From Myxococcota bacterium (lineage in GTDB: Bacteria > Myxococcota_A > UBA796 > CAJQPC01), in NCBI GenBank assembly GCA_023150775.1, contig JAKLKE010000004.1:2049-66048 (forward strand): a stretch of 64,000 nucleotides of DNA, read 5' to 3'. The notes beneath the pieces were generated by a model that saw only the letters and a program-made list of their open reading frames with translations, was not told the DNA's origin and ran no database searches. Numbering within the stretch: position 1 is the stretch's first letter; each line of letters opens with the position of its first letter. Position numbers and translations under genes: made by a program. This document shows, one piece after another, positions 54,680 through 57,170 of the stretch.

Positions 54680-55555
54680 TCAGGCGGCGGGGCTCAAGAG
54701 GTCGAGGATGGCGTCGGTGATGGCGCCGTCGCAGGCCGTGTCGTAGGCGGTGTACATCGGCTGGGCGTTCATCTCCAAGAGCACGAGCGCGCCCTCGTCG
54801 TCCTGTTTGAGGTCGGCGGCGCAGAGCTGCAGGCCCATCGCCGAGGCGAGGGCGAAGAGCGGCCCCAAGACCGCCTCCGGGGGGTCGTCCACCCGCTCAA
54901 AGGGCGCGTCGGGGGTGGCGCGGTGGTCCAAGACCTCGGCGTGGATCTGGAAGGTGAAGGCCCGCTCCCCCACCAAGGTCACGCGCAGCTCGGGGCCATG
55001 AAGGCGCGCTTGCACGAAGGCGGGCGACGGCGCGGCGCTGGCGTCGGCGTCTTGCTCGGCGAGGGCGTCTTCGAGGGGGACACAGAGCCCACCGCCGCGC
55101 AGGGGCTTGGCGACGAGGGCCTCCACCTCCCGCGCCCGCGAGGCGTGGAGATCGTTGGTGACCACCCCTCTGGGCACACGCAGGCCGAGGCGCGCGGCGA
55201 GTCCCAAGGCGGCGACCTTGTTCACCCGCCGACCCAAGGCCTCACGGTTGAGCACGAAGACGCCGGGGTTCAGCGCGGCGTAGCCCACGAGCGCCTCGTA
55301 CCAGTCCAAGGCGCGGGCGGCCACGGCGGGGCGTGGGTCGGCCAAGGCGGAGAAGACGTCGTGGCGGACCCAGAGCGCCGTGGGGCGCAGGGCCTCACCG
55401 TCAAGGCGTAAGACGCCGTCGGGCACGCCCAGGGTGAGCGTGGGCCAGGTCTCCGGGCCGACGAGCAGGCCCCGGGCGTTGATCCCCCGAGCCTCAGCGC
55501 GGCGCAGCGCCCGGGTGAGGTGCGGGTCAAGCGCCCCGCCCGCGAGCAGGATCAC
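54680..55555 (-). CDS. ATP-grasp peptide macrocyclase (graspetide synthetase, PsnB-like)
   Basis: NK..L.LA..LGL.VP...TND, KPL.GGG, AFVQ.RL.G.ELRV..VG, LDHR (DxR), AADLK, LEMN.QPM. Confidence 0.85.
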   Translation of the reverse strand: MILLAGGALDPHLTRALRRAEARGINARGLLVGPETWPTLTLGVPDGVLRLDGEALRPTALWVRHDVFSALADPRPAVAARALDWYEALVGYAALNPGVFVLNREALGRRVNKVAALGLAARLGLRVPRGVVTNDLHASRAREVEALVAKPLRGGGLCVPLEDALAEQDADASAAPSPAFVQARLHGPELRVTLVGERAFTFQIHAEVLDHRATPDAPFERVDDPPEAVLGPLFALASAMGLQLCAADLKQDDEGALVLLEMNAQPMYTAYDTACDGAITDAILDLLSPAA

Positions 55556-55561
55556 CCCGGC

Positions 55562-55723
55562 CTACTTCTCGCCGAAGGCCTTCTTGCTGGCCTGCTGCTG
55601 GCGCTCGTCGCCGGGCTCTTCAGGGATGGCCATGGTCTTGTACTCGTCGTCGCCGGGCTCCTCGGGGATGGCCATGGTCTTGTACTCTTTGGGCGCCTGG
55701 GACTTCTTGGTCGTCTCGGCCAT
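55562..55723 (-). CDS. Graspetide precursor peptide (2 x EYKTMAIPEEPGD)
   Basis: GGAG RBS + ATG; 53 aa; 42-nt tandem repeat at 55605..55687 with synonymous differences; 6 bp upstream of the ATP-grasp gene. Confidence 0.8.
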   Translation of the reverse strand: MAETTKKSQAPKEYKTMAIPEEPGDDEYKTMAIPEEPGDERQQQASKKAFGEK

Positions 55724-55771
55724 GGTGGCTCCGGGGTTGGGGGACGAGGTGGAGGATAGCACCTGCGCGGC

Positions 55772-56248
55772 TCAGCGGGTGGGCTCGTCTTGGTCCGCGC
55801 TGGGTGGGGTTTGAACGGCGCCAGGAACCCGGAACAGCGGGATCGGCGGCAAGGACAGGTCCATACGCCCAAAGAGCGAGTGGGTCAGCTCGCGCCAATA
55901 CGGCCACACGTTGAGCACGCCGTTACGCTCGGCGAAGTCCTCAAGGTCATCCGGCTCGATGACGAAGGAGGCCGGGCGGCCGTAAATCGCCTGGTAGCGG
56001 GCGGTGATGAACAGCGGCGCAGACTCCGGCGCGACGTCTGCTTGGCCAAGGTGAAGGCTGAGCTTCACCGTCACGACGACGCTCGACGCCTGGGGATCGT
56101 CGGCGCCAGTGGCCTCGTAGTGCAGGTGAATTGTCTCGGAGCCTTTGAGCACGCCATCGGTGATGGCTCCGCTGTGGGCGTGAACGTCACGCAGGTGGAT
56201 GCCTTGAAGGTTAACGACTTGCCAAATGCGGGGAGTAGGCGTGGACAT
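55772..56248 (-). CDS. SecB-like chaperone (TAC component)
   Basis: FITARYQAIY...FAERNG..NVWPYWRE....GRMDL...PIP. Confidence 0.8.
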   Translation of the reverse strand: MSTPTPRIWQVVNLQGIHLRDVHAHSGAITDGVLKGSETIHLHYEATGADDPQASSVVVTVKLSLHLGQADVAPESAPLFITARYQAIYGRPASFVIEPDDLEDFAERNGVLNVWPYWRELTHSLFGRMDLSLPPIPLFRVPGAVQTPPSADQDEPTR

Positions 56249-56251
56249 GGT

Positions 56252-56671
56252 TCAGCCCGTGCAACCGGCGAGGGCATCGCCATTGCTGTGGTCAACCGCC
56301 GGGCTACGACGGCAATGTTGAGTTTGAAACTGGTACACGATGGCACCGCCAGTGCTCGACGCAACGAGCGGACTTCTGTAGGAGTCCTTCTCTTTCCACT
56401 CTCGAATCGACAAGTTGACGACACCGCCCATGACATGCACGGTGCTTGCGAGAGTCCGAAGGCTGACGTTTCGCCCCCGAAGCATCTGCGTGATGTTGGC
56501 GGGGGACGTGCCGAGGCGACGCGCCAGTTCGGCGCGCGAGATCTGATGGTCTTCCATCCATCCCGCGATCTGCTCCATCACGTCCACGACGAGACCCTCC
56601 TCCGCATAGATGCGCTCGAAGTCGCTTTCGGAAAGCGGCGTCGGGAGGTTCGTCTGCTTCTTGGTGTCCAT
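56252..56671 (-). CDS. HigA-like HTH antitoxin with C-terminal extension
   Basis: FERIY.EE...M....ISRAELARRLGTSPANITQML.G.N.SLRTL, plus about 45 extra C-terminal residues. Confidence 0.85.
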   Translation of the reverse strand: MDTKKQTNLPTPLSESDFERIYAEEGLVVDVMEQIAGWMEDHQISRAELARRLGTSPANITQMLRGRNVSLRTLASTVHVMGGVVNLSIREWKEKDSYRSPLVASSTGGAIVYQFQTQHCRRSPAVDHSNGDALAGCTG

Positions 56672-56714
56672 GAGTTACACCTCACTACATGTATAGCCAG
56701 AACGCTATAACGGC

Positions 56715-57170
56715 CTATTTTTTTGAGGACTTCGACTTGATGCGCTGGTCGTTCTCCTCCTTCAGCCGCTTGGCTCGGAGAACATCGTCAGGTCGATGCG
56801 CATCCGTCTTCTTGATGACGCAGTAAAGTAAAAACCAAGTGGTCTTTTTCGGGTCAACGGTCTTGTCGGGATAGCACAGCACACGGAGTTGATGGGCCTT
56901 GATCTCATAGAGACCATCCTCCTGTAGATTCTTAAAGCGTAGTTCATTCCGAATGAACGAATGGCCATGCTCCGCGATTAGCCTTGCATAGCGCAAAGCG
57001 GTTGCGTATTCCTTCGGACGCTCAGCCTTGAGCTGATCAAGAAACTCTTTGGATGGCAGTCTCCCAGAAGCATCTTCGGCGAACCGAACTCGACATGCCA
57101 GACCATCGTTAACAAACGGGTCATTCAGCTCAAGCTGGAAATCATCGGACGAGTGGACACGAGAAGACAT
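56715..57170 (-). CDS. HigB/RelE-family (Gp49-like) toxin
   Basis: PSKEFLD, FKNL..DGLYEIK...RV, LLY..IKKT....DV.RA; low GC. Confidence 0.8.
   Translation of the reverse strand: MSSRVHSSDDFQLELNDPFVNDGLACRVRFAEDASGRLPSKEFLDQLKAERPKEYATALRYARLIAEHGHSFIRNELRFKNLQEDGLYEIKAHQLRVLCYPDKTVDPKKTTWFLLYCVIKKTDAHRPDDVLRAKRLKEENDQRIKSKSSKK

Follow-up and report, generated by a model that had tools for sequence, protein, structure and literature searches.

A predicted two-gene graspetide cassette with Lys/Pro cores, from a plesiocin-like family with a conserved C-terminal tail

Plesiocin, a protease-inhibiting group 2 graspetide of Plesiocystis pacifica, is formed by the ATP-grasp ligase PsnB on the precursor PsnA2; graspetides are ATP-grasp RiPPs (peptides made by ribosomes and modified after translation), and those of group 2 have the core motif TTxxxxEE. 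The PsnB preprint gives the name 'group 2a' to the plesiocin type with an LFIEDL leader, and reports that Glu37 reacts first and that Glu38 closes the second ring. Other papers describe graspetide synthetases that form both esters and amides (PMC13097080), and ester-forming graspetide synthetases that accept amine donors (PMC12291112). Here we describe a gene pair on the reverse strand of a 64,000-nucleotide stretch of myxobacterial DNA (GenBank assembly GCA_023150775.1, contig JAKLKE010000004.1, positions 2,049 to 66,048; hereafter the window, whose own numbering is used throughout). The first gene encodes a peptide of 53 residues with two KTMAIPEE cores, and the second an ATP-grasp ligase of 291 residues. 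The locus lacks three features of group 2a: a TT core, an LFIEDL leader and, in the ligase, conserved leader-pocket residues. Comparison of sequences and predicted folds indicates that the two genes are almost certainly a graspetide precursor and its ligase, and that they belong to a clade with Lys/Pro cores inside a plesiocin-like family whose precursors carry a C-terminal tail.

The ligase gene (54680..55555, reverse strand) was compared with curated protein families and with solved structures. The best NCBIfam match was TIGR04187 (GRASP_SAV_5884 ATP-grasp ribosomal peptide maturase; E 3.8e-22, 78.9 bits), which spans ligase residues 89-287 only. The MvdC (TIGR04185) and MvdD (TIGR04184) models gave 34.8 and 33.7 bits, both with E values of about 1e-8, and the RimK model gave 26.5 bits (E 3.7e-6) over residues 237-285 only. 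The corresponding curated cut-offs are 350, 425, 475 and 143.4 bits, and no significant Pfam family was found for the ligase (best ATPgrasp_ST, E 0.21). The protein is thus below the curated cut-off of every NCBIfam or Pfam model, which counts against its assignment. A sequence search of the PDB returned PsnB (7drm) as the sole clear match (E 1.3e-10; MdnB, E 0.21), with the phmmer alignment to PsnB spanning ligase residues 96-285. An AlphaFold2 model of the ligase, computed from 73 family sequences, had a pLDDT of 96.0 and a pTM of 0.91, and when it was compared with the PDB using Foldseek the top nine matches were all PsnB chains (E 1.1e-18 to 4.4e-18, query TM 0.74-0.77), followed by PruB, MdnC, AMdnB and a Chryseobacterium RiPP ligase. 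LysX (E 1.1e-14, rank 27) and RimK (E 2.9e-13, rank 35) were found lower down. An earlier first-pass annotation of this DNA had assigned the ligase to the graspetide synthetases, and that assignment stands; a grouping with RimK/LysX amide ligases, which would have spoken against it, was not seen, since RimK and LysX rank lower both by profile and by fold. The protein is best read as a graspetide synthetase, and PsnB is its nearest relative among solved structures by sequence as well as by modelled fold.

The DxR motif, which Ramesh et al. in 2021 reportedly took as a classifier of graspetide synthetases, is present in the ligase as D210-H211-R212 (54920..54928, reverse strand), as the first-pass annotation had stated. 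An alignment of 73 family ligases shows no variation at D210 or R212, nor at R191 (54983..54985, reverse strand), K150, E261 or N263. Residues were matched to PsnB on the basis that the chain numbering of 7drm equals the residue number plus 20, which was checked on Lys172, Thr180 and Arg181 as named in the PsnB preprint. R191 aligns with PsnB Arg213, a residue that, according to the preprint, binds the ring-forming Glu. The leader-pocket residues of PsnB, taken from the same source (Tyr171, Ile193, Leu196, Val201 and Phe203), correspond to A149, D171, A174, A179 and V181 and are not conserved in the window ligase. The last two lie in the stretch A179-F180-V181 (55013..55021, reverse strand), and their PsnB counterparts, Val201 and Phe203, are described in the preprint as sitting in the pocket that holds leader Phe15.

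The precursor gene (55562..55723, reverse strand) encodes 53 residues followed by a stop codon, and its translation, MAETTKKSQAPKEYKTMAIPEEPGDDEYKTMAIPEEPGDERQQQASKKAFGEK, is identical to the peptide quoted in the first-pass annotation. A 14-residue N-terminal stretch, MAETTKKSQAPKEY, is followed by core 1 (K15-T16-M-A-I-P-E21-E22; 55658..55681, reverse strand), core 2 (K29-T30-M-A-I-P-E35-E36; 55616..55639, reverse strand) and a 17-residue follower ending in KKAFGEK. Both cores read KTMAIPEE and so depart from the group 2 motif TTxxxxEE, and inspection of the translated N-terminal stretch revealed no LFIEDL motif. A ribosome-binding site, GGAG (55729..55732, reverse strand), was read from the sequence and is separated from the ATG (55721-55723) by the 5-nt spacer CCACC. 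At the other end, only the 6 nt GCCGGG separate the TAG stop codon (55562-55564) from the GTG start of the ligase. Tandem Repeats Finder detected one array, at 55605..55687, which encodes both cores and linkers (score 152, period 42, 2.0 copies, 95% matches). Comparison of the two 42-nt units shows three differences, two of which are in the core and synonymous (CCC/CCT for Pro, GAG/GAA for Glu), while the third lies in the last codon, outside the core (GAC/GAG, Asp/Glu). The first-pass annotation had described a 53-residue frame with a GGAG site, a 42-nt repeat with synonymous differences within the core, a 6-bp gap to the ligase and a missing LFIEDL leader, and on each of these points we reached the same result, the last of them agreeing also with the lack of conservation of the PsnB leader-pocket residues in the ligase.

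No significant Pfam family was found for the window precursor. The gene is 96-98% identical in congeners and metagenome contigs, and lies beside the ligase there too. That it is kept in this position, and that its cores vary synonymously apart from Met/Leu, marks it as more than a chance open reading frame (ORF). A 375-nt contig of one RNA library (X5) matches 55506-55880 and covers the entire precursor together with the beginning of the ligase gene and the last part of the ORF upstream, and contigs of a second library (X12) match 55506-55589 and 55560-55705. Relative to the window these contigs carry three variants, two of them synonymous and the third an Ala45 to Val change outside the core. 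The two RNA libraries come from two studies, and DNA can be present in such libraries; sequencing runs X1-X4 were flagged as probably DNA. As the contigs carry no strand, ends or level, and uncovered parts are uninformative, we regard their presence over the precursor ORF as a weak hint of expression.

Among 61 related genomes, the ligase has full-length orthologues in two congeners, at 87% and 84% identity, and in two genomes of another family, at 46% and 41%. With the window ligase as query, one congener that is about 90% complete yielded nothing closer than distant matches. Both orthologue-bearing congeners carry a KT peptide like that of the window. In the two genomes of the other family the peptide has TTLAVGEE cores; about eight residues precede the first of them, and the long follower ends in NPLGAF. 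Scans of genomes and metagenomes yielded 69 and 80 loci (149 fetched), nearly all from metagenome-assembled genomes and spanning Acidobacteriota, Gemmatimonadota, Myxococcota, Cyanobacteria and Proteobacteria, and the family ligases were 31-51% identical to the window ligase over the full length. An exhaustive HMMER search returned 125 cluster representatives at E <= 1e-30, 323 at E <= 1e-10 and 1438 at E <= 1e-3. The 18 proteins of a first homologue search were rejected as an estimate of family size, being too few in comparison with the locus scans and the HMMER result.

Precursors were surveyed in 151 loci in which the ligase was located by tblastn, including the window's own locus and two from the genome search (L001, L004 and L005). 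Of these, 144 could be evaluated, having both the ligase N-terminus and the upstream region, and they gave 130 distinct precursors. At least one xTxxxx[ED][ED] core, mostly TTxxxGEE, was present in 124 of the 130, so that the repeat peptide expected upstream of homologous ligases is indeed conserved. In the 883 cores, position 1 is Thr in 747, Ser in 46, Lys in 36 and another residue in 54; position 2 is Thr in 861 and Ser in 22; position 6 is Gly in 817 and Pro in 24; and positions 7-8 are Glu-Glu in 833. The precursors end in FG plus one or two residues in 106 of 130 cases, and 103 have the ending [PA]FGxx (Pro in 92, Ala in 11), typically PFGxF, with Phe as the last residue in 76, Tyr in 13, Lys in 7, Arg in 6 and Ala in 1. 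The N-terminal regions vary greatly in length, the shortest having a few residues and the longest about 150, and the median follower is 16 residues long. The distance from the upstream stop codon to the first core was at most 25 residues in 21 of 105 precursors, and a long leader is therefore impossible there. What the family has in common is the core and the PFGxF at the extreme C-terminus, and not a leader.

The survey also brought up several unusual precursors. Some have an N-terminal domain of about 120-150 residues before the cores (L030, L033, L036, L037, L039, L048, L074 and L100). That of L037 (L037:3087-3500) matches PrcB_C (Pfam E 2.6e-7), and no Pfam match was found for those from Pyrinomonadaceae, cyanobacteria and Erythrobacter; it is unusual for graspetide repeats to be joined to a folded domain. 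At L041:3803-3961 a PFGGF tail is out of frame with the core repeats, probably through a frameshift that may be real or come from assembly. Shortened cores, in which TTxxGE is succeeded by His, Gln or Gly and so by no second acid, are frequent in L040, L043, L050, L054, L079, L083, L084, L113 and L127-L129, and these variants with one acid are probably single-ring units mixed with two-ring units. Runs of N lie inside the precursor genes of L025 and L068, and the core counts of these two are lower bounds.

In a FastTree phylogeny of 118 family ligases, with 11 paralogues as outgroup, the ligases with KT precursors formed one Nannocystaceae clade (support 99) nested within the TT-type ligases. 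All 17 cores of the seven clade precursors are KT[M/L]AIPEE; the only non-synonymous change in their DNA is Met/Leu at position 3, and Lys is encoded by AAG in every one of the 17, a pattern that points to purifying selection on the clade precursors. Outside the cores, residues M1, P23, P37, D39, K48, F50 and G51 are invariant in six clade precursors, and the 14 N-terminal residues are not conserved across the six. Three changes mark the clade ligases: Y211H, in the middle of the DxR motif (Tyr in 67 of 68 ligases outside the clade), F62W (Phe in 68 of 68) and F271Y (Phe in 66 of 68).

The account that we favour, with some reserve as to the whole, is that of a self-contained two-gene graspetide cassette of an uncultured Nannocystaceae-like myxobacterium, in which the 53-residue peptide is the substrate of the adjacent PsnB-like ligase and is probably translationally coupled to it, nested lactone and lactam rings are formed, and the tail docks. 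Judging from PsnB, the first Glu of each KTMAIPEE unit would be phosphorylated and the inner Thr-Glu lactone closed. The second Glu would then be activated and the outer ring made onto the residue before Thr, which is Thr in the wider family and Lys here. The outcome would be a Lys-Glu lactam nested around the lactone, with up to four waters lost from the peptide. By analogy, the predicted inner lactones (T16-E21 in core 1, T30-E35 in core 2) are likely; the predicted outer lactams (K15-E22 and K29-E36, respectively) are less secure, and we rate their formation slightly better than even.

The lysine was assessed by cross-tabulating position 1 against position 8, with the core pattern relaxed at position 8. 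Glu or Asp occupies position 8 in 772 of 788 cores with Thr or Ser at position 1, in all cores with Lys there (14 of 14 outside the clade and 22 of 22 inside it), and in 33 of 109 cores with a non-nucleophile, many of which represent the shifted TTxxGE variant. The difference between Lys and non-nucleophiles gave a Fisher p of 3.5e-7, though the cores, being related, are not independent of one another. At least seven lineages have Lys cores, often beside TT cores in one precursor. Because position 8 stays acidic whether position 1 is Lys, Thr or Ser, Lys appears to act like the hydroxyl donors, and the covariation favours one lactam and one lactone per core. The clade-specific ligase changes at otherwise almost fixed sites, and the published synthetases that form esters as well as amides, speak for this too.

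Two observations speak against an outer ring in every unit: such a ring is not obligatory in the family, as position 1 is a non-nucleophile in 54 of the 883 cores, and two acidic residues are retained in 33 cores with no nucleophile there. A single-ring product is therefore possible, in which only the inner Thr-Glu lactone is closed, two waters rather than four are lost, the Lys remains unlinked and might serve in contacts or solubility, and enzyme binding is what preserves the second Glu. According to the PsnB preprint, PsnB holds the core mainly by its conserved Glu residues, so that the Glu pair could serve binding alone; a group 2 graspetide from Rheinheimera has VTxxxxED beside TT motifs, and its main product shows four, not five, dehydrations (PMC11626197). 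Against this, an acid is found at position 8 in 36 of 36 Lys cores, as with Thr or Ser and unlike with non-nucleophiles, Lys is the third commonest residue at position 1 after the two hydroxyl donors, its AAG codon is fixed in the 17 clade cores, and amine donors are taken by ester-forming graspetide ligases (PMC12291112). We consider the single-ring product unlikely relative to the lactam nested around a lactone.

With regard to recognition, docking would most likely involve both the acidic core and the C-terminal tail, which is K-x-F-G in the window peptide and PFGxF in most relatives. The proposed docking motif of the window precursor is K48-A-F50-G51-E-K53 (55565..55582, reverse strand). 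Since K-x-F-G is the conserved non-core element, recognition directed by the follower is likely, and the guess of the first-pass annotation that the ligase may rely on the C-terminal follower gains strong support at the family level from the [PA]FGxx endings in 103 of 130 precursors and from the invariant K48, F50 and G51 of the clade. That many family members have too little space for a leader, and that the clade's N-terminus is not conserved, also favours the tail. The clade tail reads as a degenerate form of the family PFGxF terminus. In the fuscimiditide study, RPFG is the key recognition tetrapeptide of the leader and works when moved to the C-terminal side, an arrangement that is called unnatural there (PMC13003496), and Makarova et al. 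describe a leader pattern of Pro, a hydrophobic and an aromatic residue (PMC8939145). Only three ligase columns separate the 95 ligases with tailed precursors from the 17 with tail-less ones, and two of these are A179 and V181; we treat this association as a hint. Overall, we rate a docking role for the tail as somewhat better than even.

Some of the evidence runs the other way. The association of the tail with columns 179 and 181 rests on about four changes in the tree (sign test p = 1). The clade tails have no terminal aromatic residue (AFGEK, VFGEG, PFGDK and PFGKA). The closest outgroup of the window's clade, its sister group, has no FG tail, so that the tail must be dispensable in some lineages; this group includes a Bradyrhizobium precursor that is nearly all core and Halomonas precursors with an ordinary N-terminal leader. 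These findings may indicate that the ligase reads the acidic repeat core itself and that the tail serves export, proteolytic processing or stability. The tail-less lineages L027, L055 and L056 still pair the ligase with cores, binding by PsnB is markedly strengthened by the core according to the preprint, and the tail is degenerate in the window's clade. Against such core-driven recognition stand a motif at the extreme C-terminus of 103 of 130 precursors from several phyla despite variable N-terminal regions, the resemblance of PFG to leader motifs (RPFG in ThfA, PMC13003496; the Pro-hydrophobic-aromatic pattern, PMC8939145), and the alignment of the best tail-separating ligase columns with two leader-pocket residues of PsnB. 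We regard it as the less likely reading. A complex prediction from ligase and precursor alignments scored 0.01 against a mark of 0.32, with controls not run, and weighs neither way.

The precursors of L027 (L027:3700-3990, a Bradyrhizobium stylosanthis record) and L099 consist almost only of seven TTxxxxEE cores. With about four residues before the first core and three after the last, that of L027 is without a leader and without a follower, and recognition in that sister lineage would seem to depend on the core alone.

The preferred account, with docking by the tail and nested rings, can be taken a step further, and here we are tentative. The family may be a natural follower-directed branch of the graspetides, in which a PFGxF-COOH terminus replaces the leader as the docking signal, and within it a co-evolved ligase and core of the window's clade may make a lactam over a lactone. 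On this tentative reading, His in the DxR motif of the ligase would go together with Lys at position 1 and Pro at position 6 of the core, giving an 8-residue hairpin closed by one enzyme. The product is pictured, by analogy only, as a hairpin that inhibits proteases bivalently and exposes Met or Leu in its loop; this is the most likely function that we can name, although inhibition of proteases is itself rather doubtful.

That the two genes are no RiPP pair at all, the small ORF being there by chance or unrelated and the ATP-grasp enzyme working on another substrate like RimK or LysX, is highly improbable: no curated family cut-off is reached and the fold search does pick up RimK and LysX at a greater distance, but 124 of 130 distinct precursors found upstream of family ligases carry cores, the precursor is under apparent purifying selection, the RiPP maturase model scores 78.9 bits against 26.5 for RimK, and PsnB and four other graspetide ligases rank above LysX and RimK by fold.

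On the upstream side of the pair lie a 158-residue ORF with no Pfam match, a helix-turn-helix (HTH) protein, a weak Gp49-like ORF and a GH3 hydrolase, and on the other side a 201-residue ORF with no Pfam match and then a CobW GTPase. Inspection of these flanking ORFs with Pfam revealed no protease or transporter adjacent to the pair, as noted at first pass; there is thus no export or protease gene to account for release of the product, which is a difficulty for a self-contained cassette. On the metagenome contig L090 the immediate neighbours of the pair are the GH3 gene on one side and, on the other, a 417-residue ORF that we take to be ATP sulfurylase. The cassette consists of two genes, precursor and ligase, because on L090 the pair alone separates the GH3 gene from the next housekeeping gene. 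The 158-residue ORF, the HTH gene and the Gp49-like gene were ruled out as cluster members, all three being missing from L090, and among relatives they are variable inserts.

The 158-residue ORF (55772-56248, reverse strand) lies directly upstream of the precursor, and a copy, 89% identical, was found in only one related locus, L022, which places it outside the cassette. The region 56252-57170 (reverse strand) holds the HTH ORF (Cro/C1-type, 139 residues) and a 151-residue ORF with a weak match to Gp49/DUF891 (E 0.007). Their G+C contents are 0.61 and 0.50, respectively, compared with 0.69 for the window. The two resemble a toxin-antitoxin insert, and are variable in congeners and missing from L090. 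Elsewhere, the genome of the window (G000) carries at least two more ATP-grasp paralogues, 28-29% identical to the ligase, one on contig C133 (L015:1303-2304) and a second about 19 kb away. No obvious small repeat ORF was seen directly upstream of the one paralogue inspected in this genome. A PsnB-like gene was sought in the paralogue loci L006-L020 with a four-letter alignment motif, and the only match, in L006, looked unrelated.

If the lactam is formed, the locus would offer a minimal case of one graspetide ligase choosing between a hydroxyl and an amine donor one residue apart, with Y211H, F62W and F271Y as candidate residues for donor specificity; lactams are more stable than esters, which is relevant to peptide engineering. 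If the tail docks, a layout lately engineered by hand would already be natural and leave the N-terminus free, the tail would be the first natural C-terminal recognition sequence among graspetides, for which a paper of 2026 regards such a layout as engineered and unnatural, and a motif of about five residues would make a very compact cyclisation tag. There is in addition a gap in annotation: in this large and almost wholly metagenomic family of several phyla, the source names seen for the ligases are 'hypothetical protein' or a generic ATP-grasp label, most entries having none, the window ligase is below every curated cut-off, and genome-mining rules that expect a leader are likely to miss the precursors. 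These aspects should be of moderate to high interest to RiPP specialists.

The first-pass annotation had suggested an undescribed subclass of graspetides. This holds for the all-Lys/Pro core of the clade and possibly for the C-terminal tail, and does not hold for the family as such, which is large and whose usual core is the known plesiocin motif. No natural graspetide follower or KTxxxxEE core was found in the literature searched, which excluded Lee et al. 2020 and Ramesh et al. 2021. The term 'group 2a' in the PsnB preprint implies that Lee et al. 2020 had divided group 2 further. Novelty at the family level is uncertain, as the family may be listed by Lee et al. 2020, for example as 'group 2b', by Ramesh et al. 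2021, or in the supplements to Makarova et al. 2022 or the PsnB paper.

Compared with plesiocin, the window system is alike in its repeated 8-residue cores, each with two donors, a four-residue loop and Glu-Glu, in its one ATP-grasp ligase that keeps the counterpart of PsnB Arg213 and the DxR motif, and in its myxobacterial host of the same order. It is unlike plesiocin in that Lys replaces the first Thr of the core and Pro replaces the Gly before the Glu pair, and in that the precursor has a short N-terminus with no LFIEDL leader and a conserved C-terminal FG tail. The ligase is 22-24% identical to PsnB in the Foldseek alignments and shorter by about 20-40 residues. With the TTxxxGEE/PFGxF family, inside which the clade is nested, it shares a precursor directly upstream of the ligase, equal core spacing and an FG-containing C-terminus; the clade is set apart by its KT[M/L]AIPEE cores, by a tail with no final Phe or Tyr, by 2-4 cores as against up to 24, and by the changes Y211H, F62W and F271Y that its ligases carry.

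Fuscimiditide, formed from ThfA by ThfB, resembles the window family in having a PFG-containing recognition sequence, RPFG, that is functional when placed C-terminal to the core (PMC13003496). There, however, the C-terminal leader is engineered, whereas the C-terminal position is natural in the window family, and fuscimiditide further differs in its core of Thr-Asp esters and an aspartimide, its 67-residue leader and its actinobacterial host (PMC13003496). In the systems that make amides, namely the microviridins (MvdC/MdnB) and corallotide (CorB, group 15), an ATP-grasp ligase likewise joins a Lys donor to an acidic acceptor. Corallotide is also myxobacterial and repetitive, but has a KIVAD motif and a single lactam and needs further enzymes (PMC13097080), and the microviridins use separate ligases for ester and amide. 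In contrast to these amide makers, a single ligase in the window system would make both a lactone and a lactam, nested within eight residues.

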